From a virus (lineage: Duplodnaviria > Caudoviricetes), in the IMG/VR virus record IMGVR_UViG_3300044212_000014, positions 10,272-74,271 of that record: 64,000 bases of DNA, one strand, 5' to 3'. Below, one piece after another: positions 5,277 to 49,003 of the stretch (positions are counted from its first letter, which is position 1; each line of letters begins with the position of its first letter). The notes under the pieces are model-generated. The model worked only from the letters and a program-made list of their open reading frames with translations. It was not told where the DNA came from and did no database searches. The translations under genes were made by a program, and so were the position numbers.

Positions 5277-5373
5277 ATGTTATGTAAAGAGATAAAATAG
5301 GATAAAACTATATATTGTATATTGACAGTAAAATAAGTGACGAAAAATCAATATATAGAATAAAATAAAATAC

Positions 5374-5402: not shown

Positions 5403-5414
5403 ATAACTAACCGT

Positions 5415-5589: not shown

Positions 5590-6000
5590 TGAATAAAGCC
5601 TCATCGGTAGAAAGGTTTACTTATAAGTGAGGAAGATACGTGGCGAAGAGATGCAAACCGCTTAAAAATAACATTTCGGAATTAACACTCCGAGGAATTG
5701 CCGTTAGATGGTGGGGGAGTTTCCCTGTTTTATGATTGCTGGATAGAGAAAGATATTCAGCGCCCATCCTAGATGTAACCGTCCTGTTGACCATTGGTCA
5801 GGCAAGGAACGCGAAACTTAGTTGAGTTACGAGATAAAGGCAGACCTAGGCTCGTTATTAGCGTTTAATCATACTTCAAACTGAAATACGGAGTATCCTT
5901 GTTCCCCCATTAGTGGGGGGCAAGTATCACCTTCTCCTAAAGCCGGAGTACCTACAGAGCCTTTCCCAAATCCCTTAGACCTTAATCAATAAAAGAATTA
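5590..6000 (+). ncRNA. Candidate large structured ncRNA, family unassigned
   Basis: No long ORF; many hairpins and a multibranch junction; no terminator seen between it and the upstream RNA genes. Confidence 0.5.
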
Positions 6001-13052: not shown

Positions 13053-13059
13053 AAAAGAC

Positions 13060-13088
13060 TTGACAAAACGTTAAAAATGTGGTATAAT
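13060..13088 (+). promoter_or_regulatory. Sigma70-type promoter for HNH gene (duplicated at 20829-20857)
   Basis: TTGACA-17-TATAAT with TG. Confidence 0.8.
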
Positions 13089-13108
13089 GTATTCATGGAG
13101 GTAAGGAA

Positions 13109-13771: not shown

Positions 13772-14656
13772 TTGCCACTAAGTAGCTATTTTTGTCCCGA
13801 CGGCGGGAGAATCAAAATTGAAGATTGTTTAAAAGAATGTAGATTAAAAGGTAAGATGAACCCAATAACCGGAATGGACTATGTTACTTGCGGGAGGTGT
13901 TTATCTATACCGACATTAAGAGCCGTTTCCGAACAGAGAAGTTGGACTGGCAAACCATCCACTACTCAGTTGTTACGAGGAACGAGAGAGGCATATTTAA
14001 CTCTTACGAGAGAATATGCAATCGACCCCAAAAGTATGATGTTTGCTCTTCACGGCACAAACACTCATGCGAGACTCGAAGACGGCATGTCAGAAGAGGA
14101 CTTGGGGGAACAGCGGCTGGATGACGGAGTGTCCACTGGAGCATTTGACTACTACTCAGATGAAGACGGGGGAACGCTATTCGACTATAAGACGTACTCT
14201 TCATATGTTTGTGGAAAGTATATGGGAATAGGGAGCAGGAAGGAACTAATAGGCCATTACAAGAATGGTAAACCTAGATTTCAGTCAGTAAGAACTTATG
14301 GTAATGCAAAGCACGACCTAGACCTAGCCATACAGTTAAACGATTACCGGATGAAAATACAAAAGGTTCTTAAAAAGCCAGTAGCAAACATGGTTTGTGA
14401 GATGATTGTAAGAGACGGTGGCACGTATATGGCTAAGAATAGAGGGGTAGATGATACTGCATACCTCATTAAGGTTGGTAAAATAAGTGATATTTGGGTT
14501 GAGAGGTATATGAAACGAAAAGCAAACGATTTAATTTCTGCGCTAGAAACTGGGAGAATGCCGCCACCATGCAGACCACATGAATGCTGGCACGGTAGAA
14601 AATGCAGAGACTTCTGCCCAGTTAATATGTATTGTGACGCATACAAAGGAGAATAA
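13772..14656 (+). CDS. Cas4-like PD-(D/E)XK exonuclease with Cys cluster
   Basis: LFDYKT catalytic motif, AIQLNDY, N-terminal Cys residues and C-terminal C-x5-C-x3-C-x5-C. Confidence 0.65.
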   Translation: MPLSSYFCPDGGRIKIEDCLKECRLKGKMNPITGMDYVTCGRCLSIPTLRAVSEQRSWTGKPSTTQLLRGTREAYLTLTREYAIDPKSMMFALHGTNTHARLEDGMSEEDLGEQRLDDGVSTGAFDYYSDEDGGTLFDYKTYSSYVCGKYMGIGSRKELIGHYKNGKPRFQSVRTYGNAKHDLDLAIQLNDYRMKIQKVLKKPVANMVCEMIVRDGGTYMAKNRGVDDTAYLIKVGKISDIWVERYMKRKANDLISALETGRMPPPCRPHECWHGRKCRDFCPVNMYCDAYKGE

Positions 14657-14657
14657 C

Positions 14658-14924
14658 ATGGATAAAGACATCTTAGCAGAATTTGAGAAAGAATTAAAGT
14701 CTGGTATTAAAATTGGGATTAACATGAAAGAGAATAACGACAAGGTTGAGTGTGGCATTATCGGTGATAAAGAGTATTCTCCTCAGCTTGTACTAACCTT
14801 GTTGATCATCTCCATTGCTAATCTTATGCAGATAGACCCAAGCGATCTGTTAGACGCGTGTGTTTCTGCTCGCAAGAAAGATGGTATTGACTTGTCAGAC
14901 CAGTTCGAACATCTTATTAACTAA
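14658..14924 (+). CDS. Hypothetical protein
   Basis: AAGGAG RBS. Confidence 0.6.
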   Translation: MDKDILAEFEKELKSGIKIGINMKENNDKVECGIIGDKEYSPQLVLTLLIISIANLMQIDPSDLLDACVSARKKDGIDLSDQFEHLIN

Positions 14925-15586
14925 TGGATGAGTGCGAAGTAAGAAGTAATTGTAGGAAGAGTTATGATTGCGATTGGTGCGATTACTATAGCGAATATTC
15001 CCCAATAAACATTAATATTAAATGCAAAAGACAGATAGAAAATACAAAAATTCGTAGAGAGCAGAGGAAAGTGAAAAGAATTTCCGATGCCTCTAAGAGG
15101 GGAAGGTCAAACAGAAGGAACGGACGTAAGGCAGAACGAGACGTTGAAAATCTATTAAACGAACTGGGGTTAGATGCCTCAAGAACTCCTATGTCCGGCG
15201 CACTTAAAACAGCAAACCTCATACCTCAATTAAAAGACCATGTGTCCGGTGATATAAGAATAAAGTATTTAGACAAAGAGCTTATAGTTGAATGCAAAAG
15301 GAATATTCATTCGGATAGTTGGTATAAACTTACAGAAAAAGGTTTAATACATATAGATGGGTTTTGCTATGGTCTTACAAAAGAGTTATTCGAATATTTG
15401 GTAAACGGACTACTAAGTGGGGAATGTATTGATATCCCAGACAACAAATTTAAGATGTTGCATAAATATTTCGACCAAGATAACTCAGATATCGTCGTTG
15501 TTACTAGGCCATGGCACGACCCCCTGTTCTTCTTAAAAGAAAAAACATTTGAATTATTCGGAGGTAATATAAATCATGATAAGTAG
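14924..15586 (+). CDS. Holliday-junction resolvase-like PD-(D/E)XK nuclease
   Basis: GRKAERDVENLL, SGDI, LIVECKR motifs of Hjc-like nucleases. Confidence 0.65.
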   Translation: MDECEVRSNCRKSYDCDWCDYYSEYSPININIKCKRQIENTKIRREQRKVKRISDASKRGRSNRRNGRKAERDVENLLNELGLDASRTPMSGALKTANLIPQLKDHVSGDIRIKYLDKELIVECKRNIHSDSWYKLTEKGLIHIDGFCYGLTKELFEYLVNGLLSGECIDIPDNKFKMLHKYFDQDNSDIVVVTRPWHDPLFFLKEKTFELFGGNINHDK

Positions 15587-15824
15587 CGAAAATAGAATGT
15601 CGAGAATTGAACCTACGTCGCTTTATATCTCTAGCGTTAGCGAGAAAGACCAGCATGGAATTGACCGTTTAGTCGCAACTCGCATTATGGCTTTAAATGC
15701 AACGACTCCTAAGCCTATCGTGGTAAAGACGTTCGCTATCGGAGACTTTGACAACGGGGTAAAAATAGAAACTTCCGAACGTCTTTTGGAAGTAACTAAA
15801 GATGCCATGGAGGATATAGGATAA
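15576..15824 (+). CDS. Hypothetical protein
   Basis: GGAGGT RBS, coupled ORF. Confidence 0.55.
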   Translation: MISSENRMSRIEPTSLYISSVSEKDQHGIDRLVATRIMALNATTPKPIVVKTFAIGDFDNGVKIETSERLLEVTKDAMEDIG

Positions 15825-16261
15825 TGCCTCCGGCATATGAAGAGTTGGTAAGCCAATTCGAAGAAATAAAGTATAGATACGAACAACTCACGGATACAGA
15901 TGTGTTAGAGGCATTCTCTCTCATGAGAGATTCCTCTTCACTACTGGCAAGTTACGACACGATGGTAGCGGAGTCATACAAACTAACGGCACTTACCGAA
16001 AGACAAGCTAGGGCGGTAGAGGCCAGAAAAAGTATAGAACTTTCTGTTAAACCGACGGAAGGCGCGAGAAGAGCAACCGCTGATGAAGAAGTCGTATCGG
16101 CGTGGAATAAATATATATCGGTAGCTACAAGTCAGAAATATATAGAAGCCAACGCAAAGTTCCTTAGTAGAGTATATTTCGATGCCAAGATGATAACTGA
16201 GAATTGTTATCGAAAGGAAAGGCCGGCAGTAGGAACAGACCGTATTGTTGGTAGAACGTAA
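15824..16261 (+). CDS. Hypothetical helical protein
   Basis: TAATG coupling with the previous gene. Confidence 0.6.
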   Translation: MPPAYEELVSQFEEIKYRYEQLTDTDVLEAFSLMRDSSSLLASYDTMVAESYKLTALTERQARAVEARKSIELSVKPTEGARRATADEEVVSAWNKYISVATSQKYIEANAKFLSRVYFDAKMITENCYRKERPAVGTDRIVGRT

Positions 16262-16278
16262 TCAGCCTAGGAGGTTTT

Positions 16279-16800
16279 ATGCCAAGAACAAGAAAAAATG
16301 AAACTTATTCTGTAGATGATTTAAAAGTAACTAAATATGAACCATATACGCCAGAGGCCCCGAAGGTGAAGGTAAAGTTTATAAAAGAAAGACCCGACTC
16401 TAAGGCTCCTGAATATAAGACGGATGGCTCGTTTGCTTTTGACCTGTACTCCGATAGGGACTGTACTGTTGTTGGTAATAAACCTACACTAATTTCTTTG
16501 GGGGTAAAAGTTGAAATTCCATCTGGATATGGTATGTTAATTATTCCTAGGTCATCCATTGGGAGCAAAACTCCCCTTCGTCAGTCAAATTCAGTTGGCC
16601 TAATTGATAGTGATTACCGTGGTGTTGTTATGGTAATGTATGAATCAAACAGAGATATTGCTGGTTCGACTATAGTTCGTAGAGGGGATAGAATAGCGCA
16701 GGGATTTCTAATCCCATATGTAAATGTTGACTTTGTAGAAGCAGACGAATTAAGCGAGACAGAAAGGGGTACTGGTGGATTTGGTTCTACTGGTAGATAG
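16279..16800 (+). CDS. dut: Trimeric dUTPase
   Basis: AFDLY, IPRSSIG, GLIDSDYRG, RIAQG, RGTGGFGSTG motifs I-V. Confidence 0.95.
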   Translation: MPRTRKNETYSVDDLKVTKYEPYTPEAPKVKVKFIKERPDSKAPEYKTDGSFAFDLYSDRDCTVVGNKPTLISLGVKVEIPSGYGMLIIPRSSIGSKTPLRQSNSVGLIDSDYRGVVMVMYESNRDIAGSTIVRRGDRIAQGFLIPYVNVDFVEADELSETERGTGGFGSTGR

Positions 16801-16809
16801 GAGAACGAT

Positions 16810-17376
16810 ATGTGTGTAACTAGAGTGCAACTATTTTTTATGGTAGCAGGATTCATTGCTGGTCTTGTGTCCCTATCTGGTGTTATATACCATCTTGTTA
16901 TGACATTTCGATGGAATGATATTGTAGCGTGGAGTGGTATGTTATCGTCTTATATTGTTTGAGGTATCCGACCTATTTAAGCCAGACTTTGAAGATAATG
17001 ACATGGAGGATAAATAATATGAAAGTACCAGAACATTACGTAGAATATTTCGAAAACAGAAGAAAAAGGTGTCGTTGTTTGCAAGTTAAAAAACTGCTTT
17101 ACCGTTAGGAAGTGCGCTATTGACCATCTGAGCAAAATGGGTGACTGGGCGATTAGAGATGCTTTCTCGGCATACTCCGCTAGCGTAGACGAAAATAAAC
17201 AGCAAAGAATCGGTATTGCTCATTTAGCCGACGGTGATATCTGGGACTCTCGCACTGGTCGTAAAGTGGCAAAGACGAAACTTGAAACGCACGTAAGTAA
17301 CTATTTCTTGAAAGTATTAGATAGCATTACCAATGATGCGTTACAGGTCGTAACTTGCTTTTTAACGGAGGTGTAG
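16810..17376 (+). pseudogene. Frameshifted copies of the two genes intact at 24579-24785 and 24787-25143
   Basis: Extra bases near 16949 and 17058 relative to copy 2 break both frames. Confidence 0.75.
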
Positions 17377-17380
17377 TCCA

Positions 17381-17674
17381 TTGAATGTTATTGGATATGA
17401 CAACTCAGGTAAGAAGAAAAAAGCGACGAAAGAAACGAACGAATGGTTTGACGAACATTACGGTGGAACAAGTGATGAAATTCAACCAATAGAATTTATG
17501 CAATCTCAATTTTCAGAAGAAGCGTTTGTTGGCGCTATCTTGTTTAATATAGTTAAGTACTCTTCACGGCTCGGGAAAAAGGATTCCCCTTTAGAGGAAG
17601 CGCGGAAGATACTACGATATTCCCAATGGTTAGTTAAGGTACTAGAGGGAGAAACAATAGACCCAAGGGTTTAA
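17381..17674 (+). CDS. DUF3310-like phage protein
   Basis: HYGG...IQPIEF...NIVKYSSRLGKKD...EARKILRY. Confidence 0.75.
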   Translation: MNVIGYDNSGKKKKATKETNEWFDEHYGGTSDEIQPIEFMQSQFSEEAFVGAILFNIVKYSSRLGKKDSPLEEARKILRYSQWLVKVLEGETIDPRV

Positions 17675-17705
17675 ATATAAAATTATGTTTTATTGAAGGG
17701 GGTTT

Positions 17706-18020
17706 TTGATGCCGAAGTTATTGGCAATCCTCTCACTATTATTCGTTTTCGCAATGCCCGTTTATGGGATGCAGGTTAGATGTACTGCATATACAACTAC
17801 TGAGAACACGGGCATTATGGCTAACGGTATGGAAGCGCAGGTCGGATATGTGGCTTGTGACTTCCTTCCCTTAGGTACTGTCATATACATAGACGGTGCT
17901 AGGTACATAGTAGGAGATAGGATAGGAGACGGAACAAACAACCATATTGATATTGTTTTTAACAGTTACGACGAAGCAATAAACTTTGGTGTGCAGTATT
18001 TAGATATGGAGGTAGCATAA
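17706..18020 (+). CDS. Secreted 3D-domain (MltA-like) protein
   Basis: Signal peptide; CTAYT, VACD, LPLGT, GDRIG, HIDI motifs. Confidence 0.8.
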   Translation: MMPKLLAILSLLFVFAMPVYGMQVRCTAYTTTENTGIMANGMEAQVGYVACDFLPLGTVIYIDGARYIVGDRIGDGTNNHIDIVFNSYDEAINFGVQYLDMEVA

Positions 18021-18821
18021 TTGAATGAGACGGACATGATAAGTAAAGCGTACCTACCTCACGTAATGAGGACTAGGGTTATTGGAGATAAAGGTGCGCT
18101 GGCTGTCTTATCTGATATACATGAGGGTGCAAACAACAGGAAATATTTACAAGATGCCGTGTCGTTCTTGTTATCGCTAGGGCCTCGATGTAAAGTTGTT
18201 ATCGGTGGAGATAGTACCAATACCATAACACGGAATAGCAAGGGAATACCTATCGAAGAATGGGCTAGCGGGGATAAACAAATATTTTCCCTCGTTGATG
18301 ATATAAAGCCATTGTATGACTCAGGACAGATCATAGGGATTACATCTGGTAATCACACGAGGAGAGCATATGACAGCACATTTATAACGATAGAAGCCAT
18401 GATCGCAAGCATACTGGGCGATAGGTCATTATATAAGGGTTCTATGGGTATTGTATATTTCAACGTAAATAAAAATTGTTACGTCCACCATATTTTACAT
18501 AAACATAGGGCTACGGAAGGTGCATATGATTTCTTCTCGGCAGACGCTAACTGGTTCGAGCATAAGCATAAGCCAATGGTTCGCCCTAAGATAATGATTG
18601 ACCATAACAAATATGAAAAGGTTCCCGTGGCTAAGAGATGTTGGGATATATACCAGTCTTCATTTCAGGATTATCCTGATTATGCCAAGGTCGCTGGATA
18701 TAGACCTAGTGTCCCCGGATTTTATATTTGCGAAATGAGCGGAGATATTCATAATAGATCGCTTACCCCATATATGGATGGAACGTACCACGCACTTATT
18801 AATGGCGGTTATGTGTTTTAA
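18021..18821 (+). CDS. Calcineurin-like metallophosphoesterase
   Basis: SDIHEG, GGD, SGNH, HKH metal-binding motifs. Confidence 0.75.
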   Translation: MNETDMISKAYLPHVMRTRVIGDKGALAVLSDIHEGANNRKYLQDAVSFLLSLGPRCKVVIGGDSTNTITRNSKGIPIEEWASGDKQIFSLVDDIKPLYDSGQIIGITSGNHTRRAYDSTFITIEAMIASILGDRSLYKGSMGIVYFNVNKNCYVHHILHKHRATEGAYDFFSADANWFEHKHKPMVRPKIMIDHNKYEKVPVAKRCWDIYQSSFQDYPDYAKVAGYRPSVPGFYICEMSGDIHNRSLTPYMDGTYHALINGGYVF

Positions 18822-18833
18822 GGAGAGAGTAAA

Positions 18834-19346
18834 ATGCCGAATTATCTTGATAGCCTAATAGATTCTTATGTTGATGATACGGAGCAAGATACGTACCAGT
18901 TACAAAAATATATCGTGGGCCTAATCGACAAATATTCTTCCGAACAGATAGATGGTAAAGAGGCGTGTCGTAGCATATCAAATATTACACGTCGAGACGA
19001 GTGGATACAGGACGTAAATAGTAATAGATTGAAAGAGAAAATAAAACAGAAATACTCGTTTGTCCGGTATGCAAAATCGCCTGAGGATATAATTATAGAG
19101 TGGGAAACCGCGGAAAAGATACTACATTTCCTTACGTGGTTACATTCTATAATTAATCACACTGATTGGTATATACTTACTCAGATGTCATTTAGGAAGA
19201 TACCAGCTACTATGTTAGCAAGAGAAATGAACATACCAAGGGACACGATATATAAAAGACTTTCCGTTGTTAGGAATGTGGCTAAAGAGTTTATGCCATA
19301 TTATGCGGAACAGTTCGGAGATATTAAAGAATATTTGGAGGACTAG
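18834..19346 (+). CDS. Sigma-region-4-like HTH transcription regulator
   Basis: C-terminal ATMLAREMNIPRDTIYKRL HTH. Confidence 0.55.
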   Translation: MPNYLDSLIDSYVDDTEQDTYQLQKYIVGLIDKYSSEQIDGKEACRSISNITRRDEWIQDVNSNRLKEKIKQKYSFVRYAKSPEDIIIEWETAEKILHFLTWLHSIINHTDWYILTQMSFRKIPATMLAREMNIPRDTIYKRLSVVRNVAKEFMPYYAEQFGDIKEYLED

Positions 19347-19468
19347 ACATGGACACGGTTAAAGCAGAAAAAGATTCTATAAAAGTATATGTATCAATAC
19401 CACCGTTAAGTTCTGTATAATAATATAACTAAAATAAAGGCAACAGTTCGTTAAAATGGAGGGAAAAT

Positions 19469-20821
19469 TTGAAAATATATAACGGCGATTGTATGGAATG
19501 CTTACTAATGATACCAGATAATAGCGTAGATGCTGTAGTTACTGATCCCCCTTATGAATTAGGATTCATGGGCAAAAAGTGGGACAAGACAGGGATAGCT
19601 AATAATGTAGACATGTGGCACGAAGTATTACGTGTTTTAAAACCGGGCGGTCACTTGCTGGCATTTGGGGGTACTCGACAGGTAAGAGTTATCTGTGTAC
19701 CCGACGGAATAAAGGACATGAACGACATGCTGGTAGCTGGCATAAATCCGGCAGATTTACCGTCAGAAGACATTAGTAAGTTTGTTTTGAGGCGCATCCT
19801 TAATAAATGTAAAACGATAGAGCAAGAGTACTCAAAAGCGGAAGAGTTTTTTAGGACAGTATCTAGTCAGCTTATAAAACTGGATATAATCCATATGTTA
19901 TCAGAACGCTGGGGGAAAGAGTTTGATGACCTAAAAAAGACATTCTCAGCAGTAGGTGAGGACACAGAATCCATATTACAAGAAGCGTCAAACGTAGATG
20001 ATTGTATCGCAGACCTACGACAGATATATGAGTCTGGGGGATACCCAACACACTTCCAACAAATTGATAACTGTATTCATAAGGTAGAAAAGAAACAAGT
20101 AGTTATCGTAGGGGCTTGTGCTGGTTGTGGTAAGTCTAACTTTGCTATAGAGTATATGTTAAGAGCTATATGCCACAATAAACAACGTGTTATATTCTTC
20201 TCTCTCGAAATGCCAAAGGGCAAACTCATGGAGAGAATAATTGCCCAGTTGTTAAAAGTGCCAGTTCCAGATGTAGAAAACTTAATATTACAGGGAAACC
20301 CGTTAGTATTAAAAATACTAGACCTGTTACGCAAGAAATTAATTGTGTTTGATGGTAACTCTATGGACATGGAAGGTATTGCGAGGAGAATAGATATCGT
20401 CAATGCCAAAGAACTTCTTGGTGGCCCAGTTGATATGGTGTTTGTTGATTACTTCGGCTATGTAAAGGGTACGTCTGATTTCGAGGGTGCGTCTAATGCC
20501 GCTAGGGAAATGAAGGGTATCGCGAAAAGTAGAAACATTATATTCGTTATGTTAAGCCAGTTAAACCGTAGTGGTAATGAATACAGCGAACCAACGATGC
20601 AACAGTTAAAACTTACGGGAGACTTAGAAGCGTCTGGAGATATCGTAATGTTATTGTGGCGACCAGAGAAAGACCCTAACTTAGCACTTGCTGATAGACA
20701 GGAGCTAGAGAATGTGACTAGGTTAAAGATATGCAAAGCCAGAGATGGTATGTATGGCTCCAATATGATACAGTTTAAGTATAACAAACAGGAATCACGA
20801 CTAGAAGAATGTTACATGTAG
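19469..20821 (+). CDS. Chimeric ORF at duplication junction: MTase N-terminus (70 aa) fused to primase-helicase C-terminus
   Basis: First 70 aa match 27236 MTase, remainder identical to 11070 protein from RQVRVICVP. Confidence 0.85.
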   Translation: MKIYNGDCMECLLMIPDNSVDAVVTDPPYELGFMGKKWDKTGIANNVDMWHEVLRVLKPGGHLLAFGGTRQVRVICVPDGIKDMNDMLVAGINPADLPSEDISKFVLRRILNKCKTIEQEYSKAEEFFRTVSSQLIKLDIIHMLSERWGKEFDDLKKTFSAVGEDTESILQEASNVDDCIADLRQIYESGGYPTHFQQIDNCIHKVEKKQVVIVGACAGCGKSNFAIEYMLRAICHNKQRVIFFSLEMPKGKLMERIIAQLLKVPVPDVENLILQGNPLVLKILDLLRKKLIVFDGNSMDMEGIARRIDIVNAKELLGGPVDMVFVDYFGYVKGTSDFEGASNAAREMKGIAKSRNIIFVMLSQLNRSGNEYSEPTMQQLKLTGDLEASGDIVMLLWRPEKDPNLALADRQELENVTRLKICKARDGMYGSNMIQFKYNKQESRLEECYM

Positions 20822-20877
20822 AAAAGACTTGACAAAACGTTAAAAATGTGGTATAATGTATTCATGGAGGTAAGGAA

Positions 20878-21540
20878 ATGCCATATACAATACCTGAGTT
20901 CGAAAATTACATATTATATGATAACCTAGATGTTTTTAGCAAGACGTCTGGTAGGTTTTTAAGCGCAGAGGTGGTAACACTGTGCAACGGCAAAACTAGA
21001 AAGCATTTTACTAGGAACTCTCTTAAGAAATATATCCCCATAGATGATAAGTATATTAAAATCCCTGGTTTTAACGGGGAATATGGGATATCAAAAGATG
21101 GTGAGGTTTATAGCTTTAAAACATTTAGGGTATTAAAATCATACCCCAACAAATATCGTCGCGGATATGTATATATCATACTGAGCCTCAATGGGAAACC
21201 AAAAACTTGCAAGGTACATAGGTTAGTAGCATTAACATACATACCAAATCCAAGTGGTAAGGAGTGCGTTAACCATATTAATGGAAATGTACAGGATAAC
21301 AGTGTCGATAATTTGGAATGGTGTACAGTTAAAGAAAACAACCTTTGGAATGTTAGTAGAGGCGTTGCTAATGGTGGTAACCATAAAAAATGTTATCTAT
21401 ACACCAAGTCCGGAGAGTTTGTTGGTTCGTTTCGCTCTATTAGAAAGGCTAGCGAATACGTCAAGTCTATTGGGTGTAGCGGATATGATGATATTAGGAA
21501 ATTAAAATATAATAAATATTACACGTTGGAGGTGCGTTAA
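20878..21540 (+). CDS. NUMOD4/HNH homing endonuclease (copy 2)
   Basis: Identical protein to 13109. Confidence 0.88.
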   Translation: MPYTIPEFENYILYDNLDVFSKTSGRFLSAEVVTLCNGKTRKHFTRNSLKKYIPIDDKYIKIPGFNGEYGISKDGEVYSFKTFRVLKSYPNKYRRGYVYIILSLNGKPKTCKVHRLVALTYIPNPSGKECVNHINGNVQDNSVDNLEWCTVKENNLWNVSRGVANGGNHKKCYLYTKSGEFVGSFRSIRKASEYVKSIGCSGYDDIRKLKYNKYYTLEVR

Positions 21541-22425
21541 TTGCCACTAAGTAGCTATTTTTGTCCCGACGGCGGGAGAATCAAAATTGAAGATTGTTTA
21601 AAAGAATGTAGATTAAAAGGTAAGATGAACCCAATAACCGGAATGGACTATGTTACTTGCGGGAGGTGTTTATCTATACCGACATTAAGAGCCGTTTCCG
21701 AACAGAGAAGTTGGACTGGCAAACCATCCACTACTCAGTTGTTACGAGGAACGAGAGAGGCATATTTAACTCTTACGAGAGAATATGCAATCGACCCCAA
21801 AAGTATGATGTTTGCTCTTCACGGCACAAACACTCATGCGAGACTCGAAGACGGCATGTCAGAAGAGGACTTGGGGGAACAGCGGCTGGATGACGGAGTG
21901 TCCACTGGAGCATTTGACTACTACTCAGATGAAGACGGGGGAACGCTATTCGACTATAAGACGTACTCTTCATATGTTTGTGGAAAGTATATGGGAATAG
22001 GGAGCAGGAAGGAACTAATAGGCCATTACAAGAATGGTAAACCTAGATTTCAGTCAGTAAGAACTTATGGTAATGCAAAGCACGACCTAGACCTAGCCAT
22101 ACAGTTAAACGATTACCGGATGAAAATACAAAAGGTTCTTAAAAAGCCAGTAGCAAACATGGTTTGTGAGATGATTGTAAGAGACGGTGGCACGTATATG
22201 GCTAAGAATAGAGGGGTAGATGATACTGCATACCTCATTAAGGTTGGTAAAATAAGTGATATTTGGGTTGAGAGGTATATGAAACGAAAAGCAAACGATT
22301 TAATTTCTGCGCTAGAAACTGGGAGAATGCCGCCACCATGCAGACCACATGAATGCTGGCACGGTAGAAAATGCAGAGACTTCTGCCCAGTTAATATGTA
22401 TTGTGACGCATACAAAGGAGAATAA
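21541..22425 (+). CDS. Cas4-like PD-(D/E)XK exonuclease (copy 2)
   Basis: Identical protein to 13772. Confidence 0.65.
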   Translation: MPLSSYFCPDGGRIKIEDCLKECRLKGKMNPITGMDYVTCGRCLSIPTLRAVSEQRSWTGKPSTTQLLRGTREAYLTLTREYAIDPKSMMFALHGTNTHARLEDGMSEEDLGEQRLDDGVSTGAFDYYSDEDGGTLFDYKTYSSYVCGKYMGIGSRKELIGHYKNGKPRFQSVRTYGNAKHDLDLAIQLNDYRMKIQKVLKKPVANMVCEMIVRDGGTYMAKNRGVDDTAYLIKVGKISDIWVERYMKRKANDLISALETGRMPPPCRPHECWHGRKCRDFCPVNMYCDAYKGE

Positions 22426-22426
22426 C

Positions 22427-22693
22427 ATGGATAAAGACATCTTAGCAGAATTTGAGAAAGAATTAAAGTCTGGTATTAAAATTGGGATTAACATGAAAGA
22501 GAATAACGACAAGGTTGAGTGTGGCATTATCGGTGATAAAGAGTATTCTCCTCAGCTTGTACTAACCTTGTTGATCATCTCCATTGCTAATCTTATGCAG
22601 ATAGACCCAAGCGATCTGTTAGACGCGTGTGTTTCTGCTCGCAAGAAAGATGGTATTGACTTGTCAGACCAGTTCGAACATCTTATTAACTAA
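22427..22693 (+). CDS. Hypothetical protein (copy 2)
   Basis: Identical to 14658. Confidence 0.6.
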   Translation: MDKDILAEFEKELKSGIKIGINMKENNDKVECGIIGDKEYSPQLVLTLLIISIANLMQIDPSDLLDACVSARKKDGIDLSDQFEHLIN

Positions 22694-23355
22694 TGGATGA
22701 GTGCGAAGTAAGAAGTAATTGTAGGAAGAGTTATGATTGCGATTGGTGCGATTACTATAGCGAATATTCCCCAATAAACATTAATATTAAATGCAAAAGA
22801 CAGATAGAAAATACAAAAATTCGTAGAGAGCAGAGGAAAGTGAAAAGAATTTCCGATGCCTCTAAGAGGGGAAGGTCAAACAGAAGGAACGGACGTAAGG
22901 CAGAACGAGACGTTGAAAATCTATTAAACGAACTGGGGTTAGATGCCTCAAGAACTCCTATGTCCGGCGCACTTAAAACAGCAAACCTCATACCTCAATT
23001 AAAAGACCATGTGTCCGGTGATATAAGAATAAAGTATTTAGACAAAGAGCTTATAGTTGAATGCAAAAGGAATATTCATTCGGATAGTTGGTATAAACTT
23101 ACAGAAAAAGGTTTAATACATATAGATGGGTTTTGCTATGGTCTTACAAAAGAGTTATTCGAATATTTGGTAAACGGACTACTAAGTGGGGAATGTATTG
23201 ATATCCCAGACAACAAATTTAAGATGTTGCATAAATATTTCGACCAAGATAACTCAGATATCGTCGTTGTTACTAGGCCATGGCACGACCCCCTGTTCTT
23301 CTTAAAAGAAAAAACATTTGAATTATTCGGAGGTAATATAAATCATGATAAGTAG
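22693..23355 (+). CDS. Holliday-junction resolvase-like nuclease (copy 2)
   Basis: Identical to 14924. Confidence 0.65.
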   Translation: MDECEVRSNCRKSYDCDWCDYYSEYSPININIKCKRQIENTKIRREQRKVKRISDASKRGRSNRRNGRKAERDVENLLNELGLDASRTPMSGALKTANLIPQLKDHVSGDIRIKYLDKELIVECKRNIHSDSWYKLTEKGLIHIDGFCYGLTKELFEYLVNGLLSGECIDIPDNKFKMLHKYFDQDNSDIVVVTRPWHDPLFFLKEKTFELFGGNINHDK

Positions 23356-23593
23356 CGAAAATAGAATGTCGAGAATTGAACCTACGTCGCTTTATATCTC
23401 TAGCGTTAGCGAGAAAGACCAGCATGGAATTGACCGTTTAGTCGCAACTCGCATTATGGCTTTAAATGCAACGACTCCTAAGCCTATCGTGGTAAAGACG
23501 TTCGCTATCGGAGACTTTGACAACGGGGTAAAAATAGAAACTTCCGAACGTCTTTTGGAAGTAACTAAAGATGCCATGGAGGATATAGGATAA
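23345..23593 (+). CDS. Hypothetical protein (copy 2)
   Basis: Identical to 15576. Confidence 0.55.
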   Translation: MISSENRMSRIEPTSLYISSVSEKDQHGIDRLVATRIMALNATTPKPIVVKTFAIGDFDNGVKIETSERLLEVTKDAMEDIG

Positions 23594-24030
23594 TGCCTCC
23601 GGCATATGAAGAGTTGGTAAGCCAATTCGAAGAAATAAAGTATAGATACGAACAACTCACGGATACAGATGTGTTAGAGGCATTCTCTCTCATGAGAGAT
23701 TCCTCTTCACTACTGGCAAGTTACGACACGATGGTAGCGGAGTCATACAAACTAACGGCACTTACCGAAAGACAAGCTAGGGCGGTAGAGGCCAGAAAAA
23801 GTATAGAACTTTCTGTTAAACCGACGGAAGGCGCGAGAAGAGCAACCGCTGATGAAGAAGTCGTATCGGCGTGGAATAAATATATATCGGTAGCTACAAG
23901 TCAGAAATATATAGAAGCCAACGCAAAGTTCCTTAGTAGAGTATATTTCGATGCCAAGATGATAACTGAGAATTGTTATCGAAAGGAAAGGCCGGCAGTA
24001 GGAACAGACCGTATTGTTGGTAGAACGTAA
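23593..24030 (+). CDS. Hypothetical protein (copy 2)
   Basis: Identical to 15824. Confidence 0.6.
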   Translation: MPPAYEELVSQFEEIKYRYEQLTDTDVLEAFSLMRDSSSLLASYDTMVAESYKLTALTERQARAVEARKSIELSVKPTEGARRATADEEVVSAWNKYISVATSQKYIEANAKFLSRVYFDAKMITENCYRKERPAVGTDRIVGRT

Positions 24031-24047
24031 TCAGCCTAGGAGGTTTT

Positions 24048-24569
24048 ATGCCAAGAACAAGAAAAAATGAAACTTATTCTGTAGATGATTTAAAAGTAAC
24101 TAAATATGAACCATATACGCCAGAGGCCCCGAAGGTGAAGGTAAAGTTTATAAAAGAAAGACCCGACTCTAAGGCTCCTGAATATAAGACGGATGGCTCG
24201 TTTGCTTTTGACCTGTACTCCGATAGGGACTGTACTGTTGTTGGTAATAAACCTACACTAATTTCTTTGGGGGTAAAAGTTGAAATTCCATCTGGATATG
24301 GTATGTTAATTATTCCTAGGTCATCCATTGGGAGCAAAACTCCCCTTCGTCAGTCAAATTCAGTTGGCCTAATTGATAGTGATTACCGTGGTGTTGTTAT
24401 GGTAATGTATGAATCAAACAGAGATATTGCTGGTTCGACTATAGTTCGTAGAGGGGATAGAATAGCGCAGGGATTTCTAATCCCATATGTAAATGTTGAC
24501 TTTGTAGAAGCAGACGAATTAAGCGAGACAGAAAGGGGTACTGGTGGATTTGGTTCCACTGGTAGATAG
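24048..24569 (+). CDS. dut: Trimeric dUTPase (copy 2)
   Basis: Identical protein to 16279. Confidence 0.95.
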   Translation: MPRTRKNETYSVDDLKVTKYEPYTPEAPKVKVKFIKERPDSKAPEYKTDGSFAFDLYSDRDCTVVGNKPTLISLGVKVEIPSGYGMLIIPRSSIGSKTPLRQSNSVGLIDSDYRGVVMVMYESNRDIAGSTIVRRGDRIAQGFLIPYVNVDFVEADELSETERGTGGFGSTGR

Positions 24570-24578
24570 GAGAACGAT

Positions 24579-24785
24579 ATGTGTGTAACTAGGATGCAAC
24601 TATTTTTTATGGTAGCAGGATTCATTGCTGGTCTTGTGTCCCTATCTGGTGTTATATACCACCTTATTATGACTTTCGAATGGAATGATATTGTTGCATG
24701 GGGCGGTATGTTATCGTTTATATTGTTTGAGGTATCAGACCTATTTAAACCAGAATTTGAAGATAATGACATGGAGGATAAATAA
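24579..24785 (+). CDS. Small two-TM membrane protein
   Basis: GGAG RBS; intact version of the frameshifted copy 1 gene. Confidence 0.6.
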   Translation: MCVTRMQLFFMVAGFIAGLVSLSGVIYHLIMTFEWNDIVAWGGMLSFILFEVSDLFKPEFEDNDMEDK

Positions 24786-24786
24786 T

Positions 24787-25143
24787 ATGAAAGTACCAGA
24801 ACATTACGTAGAATATTTCGAAAATGAAGAAAAAGGTGTCGTTGTTTGTAAATTAAAAAACTGCTTTACCGTTAGGAAGTGCGCTATTGACTATCTCAAC
24901 AAAATGGGTGATTGGGCAATTAAAGACGCTTTCGCGGCATACTCCGCTAGCGTAGATGAAAATAAACAGCAGAAAATCGGTATTGCTCATTTAGCCGACG
25001 GTGATATCTGGGACTCTCGCACTGGTCGTAAAGTGGCAAAGACGAAACTTGAAACGCACGTAAGTAATTATTTCTTGAAAGTATTAGATAGTATTACCAA
25101 CGATGCTTTACAGGTGGTTACTTACTTTTTAACGGAGGTGTAA
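24787..25143 (+). CDS. Hypothetical phage protein
   Basis: GGAGG RBS; intact version of the frameshifted copy 1 gene. Confidence 0.6.
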   Translation: MKVPEHYVEYFENEEKGVVVCKLKNCFTVRKCAIDYLNKMGDWAIKDAFAAYSASVDENKQQKIGIAHLADGDIWDSRTGRKVAKTKLETHVSNYFLKVLDSITNDALQVVTYFLTEV

Positions 25144-25147
25144 TCCA

Positions 25148-25441
25148 TTGAACGTTATCGAATATGACAACTCAGGTAAGAAGAAAAAAGCGACGAAAGA
25201 AACGAACGAATGGTTTGACGAACATTACGGTGGAACAAGTGATGAAATTCAACCGATAGAATTTATGCAATCTCAATTTTCAGAAGAAGCGTTTGTTGGC
25301 GCTATCTTGTTTAATATAGTTAAGTACTCTTCACGGCTCGGGAAAAAGGATTCCCCTTTAGAGGAAGCGCGGAAGATACTACGATATTCCCAATGGTTAG
25401 TTAAGGTACTAGAGGGAGAAACAATAGACCCAAGGGTTTAA
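25148..25441 (+). CDS. DUF3310-like protein (copy 2)
   Basis: Near identical to 17381. Confidence 0.75.
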   Translation: MNVIEYDNSGKKKKATKETNEWFDEHYGGTSDEIQPIEFMQSQFSEEAFVGAILFNIVKYSSRLGKKDSPLEEARKILRYSQWLVKVLEGETIDPRV

Positions 25442-25472
25442 ATATAAAACTATGTTTTATTGAAGGGGGTTT

Positions 25473-25787
25473 TTGATGCCGAAGTTATTGGCAATCCTCT
25501 CACTATTATTCGTTTTCGCAATGCCCGTTTATGGGATGCAGGTTAGATGTACTGCATATACAACTACTGAGAACACGGGCATTATGGCTAACGGTATGGA
25601 AGCGCAGGTCGGATATGTGGCTTGTGACTTCCTTCCCTTAGGCACTGTCATATACATAGACGGTGCTAGGTACATAGTAGGAGATAGGATAGGAGACGGA
25701 ACAAACAACCATATTGACATTGTTTTTAACAGTTACGACGAAGCAATAAACTTTGGTGTGCAGTATTTAGATATGGAGGTAGCATAA
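25473..25787 (+). CDS. Secreted 3D-domain protein (copy 2)
   Basis: Identical protein to 17706. Confidence 0.8.
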   Translation: MMPKLLAILSLLFVFAMPVYGMQVRCTAYTTTENTGIMANGMEAQVGYVACDFLPLGTVIYIDGARYIVGDRIGDGTNNHIDIVFNSYDEAINFGVQYLDMEVA

Positions 25788-26588
25788 TTGAATGAGACGG
25801 ACATGATAAGTAAAGCGTACCTACCTCACGTAATGAGGACTAGGGTTATTGGAGATAAAGGTGCGCTGGCTGTCTTATCTGATATACATGAGGGTGCAAA
25901 CAACAGGAAATATTTACAAGATGCCGTGTCGTTCTTGTTATCGCTAGGGCCTCGATGTAAAGTTGTTATCGGTGGAGATAGTACCAATACCATAACACGG
26001 AATAGCAAGGGAATACCTATCGAAGAATGGGCTAGCGGGGATAAACAAATATTTTCCCTCGTTGATGATATAAAACCACTATATGATTCAGGACAGATTA
26101 TAGGGATTACATCTGGTAATCACACGAGGAGAGCATATGACAGCACGTTTATAACGATAGAAGCCATGATCGCAAGCATACTGGGCGATAGGTCATTATA
26201 TAAGGGTTCTATGGGTATTGTATATTTCAACGTAAATAAAAATTGTTACGTCCACCATATTTTACATAAACATAGGGCTACGGAAGGTGCATATGATTTC
26301 TTCTCGGCAGACGCTAACTGGTTCGAGCATAAGCATAAGCCAATGGTTCGCCCTAAGATAATGATTGACCATAACAAATATGAAAAGGTTCCCGTGGCTA
26401 AGAGATGTTGGGATATCTACCAGTCTTCATTTCAGGATTATCCTGATTATGCTAAGGTAGCAGGGTATAGGCCCAGTGTTCCGGGATTTTATATTTGCGA
26501 AATGAGCGGAGATATTCATAATAGATCGCTTACCCCATATATGGATGGAACGTACCACGCACTTATTAATGGCGGTTATGTGTTTTAA
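25788..26588 (+). CDS. Metallophosphoesterase (copy 2)
   Basis: Identical protein to 18021. Confidence 0.75.
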   Translation: MNETDMISKAYLPHVMRTRVIGDKGALAVLSDIHEGANNRKYLQDAVSFLLSLGPRCKVVIGGDSTNTITRNSKGIPIEEWASGDKQIFSLVDDIKPLYDSGQIIGITSGNHTRRAYDSTFITIEAMIASILGDRSLYKGSMGIVYFNVNKNCYVHHILHKHRATEGAYDFFSADANWFEHKHKPMVRPKIMIDHNKYEKVPVAKRCWDIYQSSFQDYPDYAKVAGYRPSVPGFYICEMSGDIHNRSLTPYMDGTYHALINGGYVF

Positions 26589-26600
26589 GGAGAGAGTAAA

Positions 26601-27113
26601 ATGCCGAATTATCTTGATAGCCTAATAGATTCTTACGTAGATGACACGGAGCAAGACACGTATCAATTACAAAAATATATCGTGGGCCTAATCGACAAAT
26701 ATTCTTCCGATAAGATAGATGGTAAAGAGGCGTGTCGTAGTATATCAAATATTACACGTCGAGACGAGTGGATACAGGACGTAAATAGTAATAGATTGAA
26801 AGAGAAAATAAAACAGAAATACTCGTTTGTCCGGTATGCAAAATCGCCTGAGGATATAATTATAGAGTGGGAAACCGCGGAAAAGATATTACATTTTCTT
26901 ACATGGTTACATTCTATAATTAATCACACTGATTGGTATATACTTACTCAGATGTCATTTAGGAAGATACCAGCTACTATGTTAGCAAGAGAAATGAACA
27001 TACCAAGGGACACGATATATAAAAGACTTTCCGTTGTTAGGAATGTGGCTAAAGAGTTTATGCCATATTATGCGGAACAGTTCGGAGATATTAAAGAATA
27101 TTTGGAGGACTAG
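26601..27113 (+). CDS. Sigma-region-4-like HTH regulator (copy 2)
   Basis: Differs from 18834 at EQ/DK. Confidence 0.55.
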   Translation: MPNYLDSLIDSYVDDTEQDTYQLQKYIVGLIDKYSSDKIDGKEACRSISNITRRDEWIQDVNSNRLKEKIKQKYSFVRYAKSPEDIIIEWETAEKILHFLTWLHSIINHTDWYILTQMSFRKIPATMLAREMNIPRDTIYKRLSVVRNVAKEFMPYYAEQFGDIKEYLED

Positions 27114-27235
27114 ACATGGACACGGTTAAAGCAGAAAAAGATTCTATAAAAGTATATGTATCAATACCACCGTTAAGTTATGTATAATAATATAACTAAA
27201 ATAAAGGCAACAGTTCGTTAAAATGGAGGGAAAAT

Positions 27236-28267
27236 TTGAAAATATATAACGGCGATTGTATGGAATGCTTACTAATGATACCAGATAATAGCGTAGATGC
27301 TGTAGTTACTGATCCCCCTTATGAATTAGGATTCATGGGCAAAAAGTGGGACAAGACAGGGATAGCTAATAATGTAGACATGTGGCACGAAGTATTACGT
27401 GTTTTAAAACCGGGCGGTCACTTGCTGGCATTTGGGGGTACCCGTACATATCATCGTATGGCATGTGCCATTGAGGATGCAGGATTTGAAATCCGTGACC
27501 AACTACAGTGGATTTATGGCAGTGGATTTACAAAGTCCATGGATATTAGCAAGGCGATTTATAAAAAAGCTGGGATATGGAGAGGAAAAGCGGGCAACGT
27601 AATCTCTAAAAATGGTTCTATGAGCGCACCAAATTATGAACGGACACCAAAAGTGGAGCCTATTACTGAACTTGCTAAACAATGGAACGGATTTGGCACA
27701 GCTCTTAAGCCTGCAAACGAGCCTATCTGTCTTGCTCGTAAGCCGCTGACTAAAAAAAGTGTTGTAGATAATATACTGAGATACGGTACCGGAGGCATTA
27801 ATATTGACGGGTGTCGAATACCCACTACGCAACTGCACGTTCAAAAAGCAAAAGGTTCTAATGGGACTCAGGGGATATACGGCGACTTTAATACCATGGG
27901 TGTATATGCCCCCAACCCACACGGTAGATTCCCGTCGAACGTTATACTCGACGAAAACGCATCACAACTTTTAGATGCGCAGACAGGAACTCTTAAAAGC
28001 CGATTTTTTTACTGTGCAAAGGCTTCACGGAAGGAACGTGACCAAGGACTTGACGACCACAACAATCATCCGACAGTAAAGCCTGTAGACCTTATGCGAT
28101 ATTTAGTTAGCCTTGTTACAAAAGAAGGGCAAGTCGTTCTTGATCCGTTTATGGGTAGTGGGACAACTGGGGTTGCTTGTGTGTTAAATCATAGAGATTT
28201 TATAGGGATAGATAAAGACAAGCATTATTGTGATATTGCCGAAAGGCGCATCGCCTATTCTATATAG
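27236..28267 (+). CDS. N6A/N4C DNA methyltransferase (beta class)
   Basis: DPPY near N-terminus, HPTVKP, LDPFMGSGTTG near C-terminus. Confidence 0.92.
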   Translation: MKIYNGDCMECLLMIPDNSVDAVVTDPPYELGFMGKKWDKTGIANNVDMWHEVLRVLKPGGHLLAFGGTRTYHRMACAIEDAGFEIRDQLQWIYGSGFTKSMDISKAIYKKAGIWRGKAGNVISKNGSMSAPNYERTPKVEPITELAKQWNGFGTALKPANEPICLARKPLTKKSVVDNILRYGTGGINIDGCRIPTTQLHVQKAKGSNGTQGIYGDFNTMGVYAPNPHGRFPSNVILDENASQLLDAQTGTLKSRFFYCAKASRKERDQGLDDHNNHPTVKPVDLMRYLVSLVTKEGQVVLDPFMGSGTTGVACVLNHRDFIGIDKDKHYCDIAERRIAYSI

Positions 28268-28298
28268 GATACACTATGTAAGTTAGGAGATATTTATA

Positions 28299-28430
28299 AT
28301 GTTTAAAATATTATTTTGTGGACTAACCACATTCACCATTCTACTTTGGGTAATAACCATGGACGTTACTATTGGTTTATGTGCTAATATACTTGTTACA
28401 TGCACTTTAAATTCATTAAATAGAGAGTGA
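28299..28430 (+). CDS. Small membrane peptide (43 aa)
   Basis: AGGAG RBS; MFKILFCGLTTFTILLWVITM...; below the ORF-track cutoff. Confidence 0.45.
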   Translation: MFKILFCGLTTFTILLWVITMDVTIGLCANILVTCTLNSLNRE

Positions 28431-42433: not shown

Positions 42434-42613
42434 CTATTCAATTAAGAACTCATCATAACCGCATGTTATGTGGCATTTGCTTCTTTTCTTTATATTCCAT
42501 TGTATCGCGTCAATATCTTGACTATCTAAAGTATAACAGTTTTCGAGTAGCTCGTCAATACAATGGTTTAAGCTTCCTTGTGTAATTACCCTCCCGTTTA
42601 TTAATAGCTTCAT
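42434..42613 (-). CDS. Hypothetical protein directly downstream of hammerhead A
   Basis: GGGAGG SD 9 nt before ATG. Confidence 0.55.
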   Translation of the reverse strand: MKLLINGRVITQGSLNHCIDELLENCYTLDSQDIDAIQWNIKKRSKCHITCGYDEFLIE

Positions 42614-42623
42614 TTTAATCATC

Positions 42624-42692
42624 CTCCCTCATCAGTGCCATATAGCCTATGGCATACGTGAGAGTATGCGTCTCCTCTTCACGTTTCGGGAA
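42624..42692 (-). ncRNA. Type II hammerhead ribozyme A
   Basis: Minus strand: TTCCC-GAAA-C-stem III-GTA/cleavage-TGCCATA ggcta TATGGCA-CTGATGA-GGGAG. Confidence 0.85.
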
Positions 42693-42805
42693 ACAGTTCT
42701 CGTACTGTCAGACGATAATAGATTTGGGAATAAAGTAAGTAGTTTGACGCATGAACGGTTTTAGCCCCGTCAGGCACGAACATTAAACTGCTACCTCATG
42801 TTTCT

Positions 42806-42834
42806 ATCATATCATATTCTATTGGCTCTGTCAA
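42806..42834 (-). promoter_or_regulatory. Sigma70-type promoter upstream of hammerhead A
   Basis: TTGACA-17-TATGAT with TG. Confidence 0.7.
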
Positions 42835-44771: not shown

Positions 44772-44790
44772 TTTAACTCCTCCTCTACCT

Positions 44791-44864
44791 ATCTCATCAG
44801 TGTATAGCCAGTAACCGCTATACAGACAGGGCAAATGCCCTGTTTCGATTCGCCCACCTGTCAC
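44791..44864 (-). ncRNA. Type II hammerhead ribozyme B
   Basis: ATC-GAAA-C-AGGGC attt GCCCT-GTC/cleavage-TGTATAGC ggttactg GCTATACA-CTGATGA-GAT; loop GTTAC can pair with upstream GTGAC. Confidence 0.85.
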
Positions 44865-45040: not shown

Positions 45041-45099
45041 GCAAATCTTTTTTGAATGTAGACTGTCGCTATCTGCCGTTTCTACACCGGGAGATTTAC

Positions 45100-45160
45100 T
45101 GGTTTGTCTCGTCAGTATACAGAGAACCATTCTGTATATACGGGCATTGCCCGTTTCGAC
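45100..45160 (-). ncRNA. Type II hammerhead ribozyme C
   Basis: GTC-GAAA-C-GGGC aat GCCC-GTA/cleavage-TATACAGA atggttc TCTGTATA-CTGACGA-GAC; loop TGGTT pairs with downstream AACCA. Confidence 0.88.
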
Positions 45161-48197: not shown

Positions 48198-48271
48198 TGC
48201 GGGGTATTTTAATGGCAGAATACTAGGCTCATTCCCTAGTGACGAGTGTTCGACTCGCTCTCCCGCAACCA
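48198..48271 (+). tRNA. trnM: tRNA-Met(CAT), initiator-like
   Basis: TGCGGGG/TCCCGCA-A-CCA acceptor like fMet; CTAGG-ctCATtc-CCTAG. Confidence 0.85.
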
Positions 48272-48272
48272 T

Positions 48273-48347
48273 GCTTGTGTGGCGCAATGCTAGCGCAACT
48301 GACTTGTAATCAGTAGGTTGAAAGTTGGAATCTTTCCACAAGCTCCA
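48273..48347 (+). tRNA. trnT: tRNA-Thr(TGT)
   Basis: ACTGA-ctTGTaa-TCAGT; atypical T-loop TTGGAAT and D-loop lacking GG. Confidence 0.8.
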
Positions 48348-48350
48348 TAC

Positions 48351-48425
48351 ACCTTGGTAGTTCAATGGTAGAGCGCCTGACTGTTAATCAGGAAGTTGTA
48401 GGTTCGAATCCTACCCTTGGTGCCA
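48351..48425 (+). tRNA. trnN: tRNA-Asn(GTT)
   Basis: CCTGA-ctGTTaa-TCAGG; two U-U mismatches in acceptor stem. Confidence 0.85.
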
Positions 48426-48428
48426 CAT

Positions 48429-48502
48429 AGGGGAGTCGTTCAATGGCAGGACATGAGACTTTGACTCTCAGAATCTTAGTTCAATTCTAAGTTCCCCTTC
48501 CA
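48429..48502 (+). tRNA. trnQ: tRNA-Gln(TTG)
   Basis: TGAGA-ctTTGac-TCTCA; encoded CCA. Confidence 0.88.
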
Positions 48503-48745
48503 AAATGGAGGAATAAAAGTCGGCATTCCTCAGCTATAATGAGTGATGTAGCACGGTTATGGTACTGCACTACAGATGGCTAAACCTACAGTGATGTCAT
48601 CATGGGCGCCGCCCCTAATAGTCGAGGGATAAAAGCAGACTAACGATACGTACATCGGGACTTATATTGTATGTCTGATCTATAGACGGACTTGATGTGG
48701 TCTTGATTTCCTTTTGGAGGGTTAGCGGGTTAAATGCCTCCCCCA
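48503..48745 (+). ncRNA. Candidate structured RNA within tRNA array, ending in a CCA microhelix
   Basis: 243-nt insert among tRNAs otherwise 1-4 nt apart; several hairpins; GGAGG/CCTCC-C-CCA end. Confidence 0.45.
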
Positions 48746-48746
48746 T

Positions 48747-48833
48747 GGATGATTGGCAGAATGGCTATTGCAACTGTCTTGAAAACAGTCAAACCGAAAG
48801 GTTTTGTGGGTTCGAATCCTACATCATCCTCCA
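48747..48833 (+). tRNA. trnS: tRNA-Ser(TGA)
   Basis: ACTGT-ctTGAaa-ACAGT; long variable arm. Confidence 0.9.
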
Positions 48834-48837
48834 ACAT

Positions 48838-48923
48838 GTTAGGGTGGGCGAGTGATTAATGCCAGCAGTCTGTAAAACTGCCCTCTTCGGAGTTCGTAAG
48901 TTTGAATCTTACCCCTAGCACCA
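48838..48923 (+). tRNA. trnY: tRNA-Tyr(GTA)
   Basis: GCAGT-ctGTAaa-ACTGC; long variable arm; T-loop TTTGAAT. Confidence 0.88.
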
Positions 48924-48926
48924 CAT

Positions 48927-49003
48927 ACTAGACTGGTGCAACTGGCAGACACAATGGTCTTAGAAGCCATAAAGTAAGGGTTCGAATCCCTTGTCTAGTA
49001 CCA
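48927..49003 (+). tRNA. trnL: tRNA-Leu(TAG), short variable loop
   Basis: ATGGT-ctTAGaa-GCCAT, 5-nt variable loop AAAGT. Confidence 0.9.

Follow-up and report, generated by a model that had tools for sequence, protein, structure and literature searches.

The window analysed here is a stretch of 64,000 nucleotides that corresponds to bases 10272-74271 of a 74,271-bp virus record. The phage has an SU10-type portal. HH-C, the third hammerhead motif of its region, precedes a small minus-strand ORF that encodes a protein of 59 aa and has a GGGAGG Shine-Dalgarno (SD) sequence (Table 1). Other genes of the region use strong SDs of this kind as well. The tandem sigma-70-type promoters and the small ORFs reasonably suggest that the gene behind HH-C is an early gene. 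A Pfam search with the 59-aa ORF gives no match; its orthologs in two related contigs, L073 and L072, are also 59 aa long and show 95% and 80% identity, respectively. Transcription from promoter P5 would start near 42799. The leader contains a 34-codon ORF (42783-42679) that ends inside stem III of HH-C, but a 1-nt insertion shifts its frame in L073, and this ORF is probably non-coding. A megablast search with 3 kb of the region against GenBank phages gives no match, and the 251-aa downstream protein has no relatives in the viral contigs. Other parts of the window hold a direct repeat with a period of 7,769 nt (12500-20568, then about 20269-28300), 100% identical over the stretch tested, which duplicates a six-ORF block (220, 294, 220, 173, 266 and 170 aa); this may reflect either a genuine tandem duplication or an artefact of assembly. 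Rfam matches at 5496-5579 and 5763-5868 mark an 84-nt tmRNA-like gene, with a tRNA-like domain only, and an adjoining EGFOA RNA. Nine tRNA genes are present, one at 5415-5489 and eight at 48198-49000.

Table 1. Features of the HH-C locus and the two sister copies, in window coordinates
Feature	Position	Strand	Basis or remark
Promoter P5, TTGACA + 17 nt + TATGAT, extended TG	42806..42834	-	11/12 matches; conserved in L073
Leader, predicted 5' cleavage product, about 145 nt	42655..42799	-	Carries the SD-masking tracts UUUCCC and CUCUC
Hairpin ACAGU-ACGAGA-ACUGU, abuts stem II	42693..42708	-	Sequence; also in the minimum-energy fold of the full leader
Stem II 5' strand UUUCCC (anti-SD)	42688..42693	-	Sequence, descriptor and fold
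Core G12 A13 A14 A15.1 (GAAA)	42684..42687	-	Invariant in 10/10 aligned copies
Stem III including A15.1-U16.1, 9-10 bp, one bulged A, 10-nt loop GAGACGCAUA	42656..42684	-	
Predicted cleavage site, A42655 / U42654	42654..42655	-	Position in core; U42654 would be the 5'-OH end
Stem I hairpin, 7 bp, loop GGCUA	42636..42654	-	Would become the 5'-terminal hairpin of the mRNA after cleavage
Core C3-A9 (CUGAUGA)	42629..42635	-	CUGAnGA invariant in 10/10 aligned copies
GGGAGG, stem II 3' strand and Shine-Dalgarno	42623..42628	-	9 nt before ATG 42613-42611
59-aa ORF, function unassigned	42434..42613	-	Served by the GGGAGG SD
HH-A	45098..45160	-	Just after promoter P3; pseudoknot UGGUU/AACCA; no ORF behind
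HH-B	44784..44849	-	Loop I/tail pseudoknot; SD of ORF 44771-44532 within a few nt

HH-C (42693-42623, minus strand) contains all conserved hammerhead core bases in the type II order. [quoted passage not shown] The A15.1-U16.1 pair is formed by A42684 and U42656. The cleavage triplet GUA occupies 42657-42655, with A42655 as residue H17. Stem II pairs UUUCCC with GGGAGG through three G-C, one A-U and two G-U pairs; it has 5 bp, or 6 bp if a G-U pair between U42693 and G42623 replaces the closure of the hairpin at 42708-42693. This hairpin could stack coaxially on stem II. A similar upstream hairpin with an ACGAGA-containing loop accompanies the copy HH2 in L072 (about 2020-2045). Stem III of HH-C also holds an SD-like AGAGGAGA tract and the tract CUCUC. 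The preliminary description of this locus had proposed a complete type II core, with its GUA triplet and CUGAUGA, and had taken GGGAG(G) as both the 3' strand of stem II and the SD located 9 nt before the ATG at 42613. Both proposals agree with the sequence, and every coordinate given was right. The motif, its overlap with the SD and its kinship with the sister copies are seen at the level of the sequence itself.

HH-C departs from the consensus in its tertiary contacts. In most type II hammerheads, loop I pairs with the bases just 3' of stem II in a pseudoknot of 4 bp or more, which is not obligatory (PMC3088659). Loop I of HH-C (GGCUA) and its 3' tail (AGGAUGAU) show no such pairing, and a by-eye check of the stem III loop and the upstream bases for an alternative partner finds none either. 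Its tail consists of the SD and the spacer, and its stem II measures 5-6 bp versus 3 bp in every sister copy.

A descriptor covering all three hammerhead topologies gives exactly three matches in the whole 74,271-bp genome, all of them type II, on the minus strand, intergenic and within 2.6 kb. In 100 dinucleotide shuffles the mean is 0.12 matches per genome at looser thresholds, and none has all stems of at least 5 bp. Covariance models agree with this result. Model R1, seeded only with HH-A and the copies of the relatives L001 and L002, finds HH-B at 54 bits and, with filters off, recovers the full length of HH-C at 24.8 bits (E 1.8e-6 in 8.4 kb). Alignment A7, also fitted to a covariance model, includes 10 copies (9 distinct sequences) from the window, L073, L072, L001 and L002. 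Here 98% of the cells are paired, 13 of 17 pairs have changes on both sides and the core is invariant; slid controls give 1-2 pairs with compensatory changes. HH-C has no covariation of its own because its only ortholog, in L073, is identical, and no relative supplies any. Judged from these comparisons, a chance origin of the HH-C motif is practically excluded.

Rfam is silent on all three copies. No hammerhead model matches in the whole window at gathering thresholds, none of the three copies is matched when both hammerhead regions are searched at E up to 10, and RF02276 (Hammerhead_II; gathering threshold 37 bits) has no match over the whole genome. The cmsearch with RF02276 that had been proposed as a check of HH-C is accordingly negative, also at E up to 10. 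This says little about HH-C because, in a control on eight other viral loci, the same model reached its threshold for only one of 7 clear type II hammerheads and missed the other 6. The twister-P5 and pistol models matched nearby in the same control run. We therefore treat the negative as insensitivity of a narrow model and not as absence of the ribozyme, and the curated Rfam type II model misses many phage hammerheads, a gap in the database. The twister-P5 ribozyme (L021, 135-187) and the pistol ribozyme (L027, 1186-1262) each lie within 1-2 kb of type II hammerheads that have an SD in stem II, and these regions of unrelated viral contigs are ribozyme-rich phage regions.

The two sister copies show the consensus pseudoknot. 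The predicted cleavage sites of HH-A and HH-B are about 310 nt apart, with a consensus promoter and non-coding RNA between them. The pseudoknots of the HH-A class covary (UGGUU/AACCA, UGGUU/AGCCA and UGGCU/GGCCA), and in the HH-B class a pseudoknot of UUACU with GGUAG or GGUAA can be drawn. An extended anti-SD for HH-B, pairing upstream CUUCCUAC with the SD, was considered and rejected: the tract forms a local hairpin CCUAC...GURGG instead, and this hairpin is retained in L073, where the sequence changes are not compensatory with the SD. One pair of this hairpin covaries. A further hammerhead-like sequence at 45005-44942 (minus strand) lies right after a perfect TTGACA/TATAAT promoter; its tail AACCAGU is that of HH-A, its core reads CUGAGAA, its stem III is imperfect and R1 scores it at E 0.7. 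This relic is probably a decayed hammerhead copy.

Relatives were found in two ways. Those identified through the terminase (72-79% identity) include L001 and L002, with one HH-A-like copy each; L003-L008 have no hammerhead with filters off and E up to 1, and L009-L011 have none in the second search, in which only L001 and L002 scored. L072 and L073 were found through the orthologs of the 59-aa protein. L073 has all three hammerheads, with HH-C identical and HH-A' and HH-B' differing by compensatory changes. L072 has two further type II copies, at 49 and 40 bits, which are outside the model seed. The hammerheads of the relatives mostly lie just 5' of an SD (HH-B' of L073, HH1 and HH2 of L072), and the HH-A-like copies have no SD nearby. 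In L072 the ortholog of the 59-aa gene has the same GGAGGAUGAUU context, with SD and spacer directly behind a consensus promoter and no ribozyme. The same SD without a ribozyme indicates that the ribozyme is dispensable for this gene family and is an add-on. L072, which has no HH-C, also carries a T7-like single-subunit RNA polymerase gene (4256-5421) downstream of its small-ORF block; no such gene is seen among the large ORFs of the window.

Use of an SD as a stem II strand recurs in other viruses. A pattern forcing a CUCC...GGAG stem II matches 53 viral loci, and 8 distinct loci among them, in unrelated viral contigs, are type II hammerheads by the descriptor. In all eight an ATG 3-10 nt after GGAG opens an ORF of at least 42 codons, compared with 9 of 29 matches that are not hammerheads (Fisher p = 6e-4). 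The stop codon of an upstream ORF lies 2-5 nt before CUCC in seven of the eight, and most members of this SD-type family have a 5-nt loop I. The predicted gain in SD accessibility in these other hammerheads is mixed, from 0.5x to 37x. SD-neutral patterns for two subfamilies give 13 loci, 11 with a GGAG stem II, a biased sample since the subfamilies were first found through GGAG. The exact-type pattern of HH-C has no match in the viral contigs. Another pattern, CCCGAAA...CTGANGAGGGAGG, was discarded; all four of its matches are chance ones and have no stems.

Folding predictions place the SD of HH-C in a helix before cleavage. The hammerhead fold (-24.7 kcal/mol), which is present in the minimum-energy fold of the full leader, is nearly isoenergetic with an alternative fold (-25.3 kcal/mol), the two being within 0.6 kcal/mol. 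In the alternative fold the core is unformed, the partner of UUUCCC is the SD-like AGGAGA of stem III, and CUCUC is paired to the SD. The SD is masked in both folds, and both masking tracts lie 5' of the predicted cut. The SD has a predicted probability of 0.012-0.03 of being unpaired in the precursor and of 0.26-0.53 in the 3' product. By computation, the SD is thus paired in the uncut RNA and becomes single-stranded in the 3' product, as expected of a ribosome-binding site (RBS) released by cleavage. The preliminary description held that a 5-bp helix alone joins the two products after cleavage, and the models concur: the helix has 5-6 bp, and with a bare stem II duplex of -6 kcal/mol the fragments are expected to separate. 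The 59-aa ORF contains a second CGGGAGGG at 42596-42589 (minus strand), 20 nt past its start codon. This stretch can form 7 bp with the anti-SD UUUCCCG and is the docking site that cofolding prefers for the released 5' fragment.

From these features we consider it somewhat more probable than the contrary that HH-C is a real type II self-cleaving ribozyme serving as an obligatory, constitutive cut-and-release step of maturation that unmasks the RBS. P5 would transcribe HH-C, and read-through from upstream promoters is probable as well. As the SD strand GGGAGG emerges it would pair with UUUCCC and complete stem II, and the RNA would cut itself between A42655 and U42654. The 5' fragment, with the stem III hairpin and a 2',3'-cyclic phosphate at its end and held by the 5-6 bp helix only, would then depart with both SD-masking tracts. 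The mRNA of the 59-aa gene and the following genes would start with a 5'-OH at U42654, the new end foreseen in the preliminary description, flush with the 7-bp stem I, and its SD would be single-stranded. All transcripts would obtain an identical structured 5' end and an unmasked RBS. In bacterial mRNA decay, 5' ends flush with a hairpin are protective, and a 5'-OH alone is not protective in all hosts. Among the hammerhead topologies, type II alone would leave each cleavage product with a hairpin at its new end, stem III on the upstream RNA and stem I on the downstream mRNA, and this would suit intercistronic processing.

The preliminary description had gone further and read the arrangement as ribozyme-gated expression. 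The part of that claim which stands is the computed unmasking of the SD, together with both anti-SD tracts on the 5' fragment and products held by a short helix. The gate itself fares less well, and we favour a constitutive step because the L072 ortholog has no ribozyme, HH-C has no pseudoknot, no signal-sensing part is visible and the leader ORF is frameshifted. The step is expected to be at most a delay, if cleavage is slow, and not to respond to a signal.

A less probable account, still to be taken seriously, is that HH-C serves processing only. A fast constitutive cut would separate or insulate transcripts and cap the products with hairpins, and the SD overlap would be compaction without measurable effect on translation. 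Processing of polycistronic RNA is the role proposed in the literature (PMC6765202), and it fits with HH-B, HH-B' of L073 and HH2 of L072, where the SD follows the ribozyme and is not within it, with the SD-type family members L070 and L071, which have a separate SD or none nearby, and with the L072 ortholog, which needs no ribozyme. Against this account speak the stem II of HH-C, lengthened relative to the 3 bp of its sisters exactly over GGGAGG, the second SD-complementary tract carried by the 5' fragment, and the prediction that the SD is masked in 97-99% of the uncut RNA.

It is unlikely that HH-C is a weak or decaying ribozyme, in which cleavage in vivo would be slow or absent and UUUCCC/GGGAGG together with the alternative fold would form an SD-sequestering leader that damps translation. 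According to Perreault et al. (2011, PMC3088659), rapid cleavage under physiological Mg2+ requires the pseudoknot; one type II ribozyme tested at 0.5 mM Mg2+ was slowed more than 100-fold when the pseudoknot was removed. The absence of a drawable loop I/tail pairing in HH-C, an alternative fold that masks the SD with the core unformed, and the relic at 45005-44942, which documents decay of a copy in the region, are all consistent with such weakness. On the other hand, all 13 core positions and the three helices are intact and identical in L073. Many natural hammerheads also have no recognisable tertiary contacts (PMC3088659), and the SD-type family of other viruses is similar, with a 4-bp CUCC/GGAG stem II and no obvious pseudoknot.

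More doubtful still is a regulated switch, a true gate in which a protein, a small RNA, Mg2+ or temperature selects between the active and the strand-swapped fold. Two exclusive folds within 0.6 kcal/mol, built from two purine and two pyrimidine tracts, and an unusually long stem III with its SD-like tract could be read in this way. But repeated purine- and pyrimidine-rich tracts automatically yield alternative pairings, no ligand-binding domain is present, and the leader ORF, a conceivable link between translation and folding, has a shifted frame in L073. That the SD-containing leader resembles a hammerhead by chance is highly improbable: the lack of an Rfam match and of covariation in HH-C itself is outweighed by the shuffle control, the independent covariance model match, the two same-strand sisters and the homologous copies in relatives.

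Returning to cut-and-release, we suggest tentatively that type II hammerheads in phage operons could form a natural module for this purpose, in which stem II withholds the SD and slow, pseudoknot-less copies act as a timer for early-gene translation. HH-C would tie cleavage directly to translation, with the ribozyme helix and the RBS being one and the same, and it offers a clean test of the role question. The L072 relative, with the same gene and SD and no ribozyme, is a natural control.

Type II hammerheads, their association with phages and their clustered copies have been on record since 2011 (PMC3088659). In phages and prophages such clusters cleave polycistronic transcripts both in vitro and in vivo (PMC3088659), and the type II copies of D. 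vulgaris are active in vivo (PMC8782182). The role of hammerheads in bacteria and phages is nevertheless called open (PMC6155905, PMC6765202), with possible effects on stability or translation efficiency raised in PMC6765202. No mention of Shine-Dalgarno sequences or ribosomes was found in PMC3088659, and no description of an SD as a stem II strand in the literature searched, which covers the 2011 work incompletely. HH-C shares with the clustered phage type II hammerheads (PMC3088659, RF02276) the catalytic core and the topology, and, like them, it belongs to several same-strand copies within a few kb, intergenic among small phage ORFs of unassigned function. HH-A and HH-B also share the consensus pseudoknot of loop I and 3' tail with the published type II ribozymes (PMC3088659). 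HH-C differs from these in having no pseudoknot, in a stem II of 5-6 bp that is the SD of the next gene, and in scoring below every Rfam hammerhead threshold. The ribozyme kind itself is known; what is new in HH-C is the combination of a missing pseudoknot with an SD as stem II.

Several known systems resemble HH-C in part. A natural 5'-UTR ribozyme of bacteria is glmS (Winkler et al. 2004, as cited in PMC6765202). Its cleavage changes downstream expression through a new 5'-OH end, as predicted for HH-C, but it depends on a metabolite and lowers expression, whereas HH-C has no evident ligand and is expected to raise it. For T7 the likeness to HH-C is in the intercistronic cuts of early transcripts, the hairpins at product ends and a possible change in translation of the downstream cistron. 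T7 early polycistronic mRNA is processed by RNase III, a host protein enzyme acting on double-stranded RNA, and the 5'-OH product of glmS is degraded by RNase J1. The T7 cuts are thus made by a host protein, whereas the HH-C RNA would cut itself and leave 5'-OH and 2',3'-cyclic phosphate ends.

Another parallel is an engineered one. In an engineered RBS switch, an S. mansoni hammerhead placed in a bacterial 5' UTR sequesters the SD until cleavage (reviewed in PMC12192606). The logic is that of HH-C, with the SD in a ribozyme stem and freed by self-cleavage. Engineered hammerhead RBS switches were reportedly made by Wieland and Hartig and by Ogawa and Maeda, both in 2008, and the RiboJ insulator is said to come from Lou et al. 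in 2012. In these switches and in RiboJ, as would be the case in HH-C, the cut strips a variable leader, and the new 5' end carries a hairpin. They are synthetic, use eukaryotic or satellite hammerheads of other topologies and often contain an aptamer, whereas HH-C is natural, type II and aptamer-free. HH-C would be the natural counterpart of these hand-built designs of synthetic biology, and, if true, the cut-and-release module for the RBS would provide a concrete function for a class of ribozymes that has lacked one in bacteria and phages since 2011.
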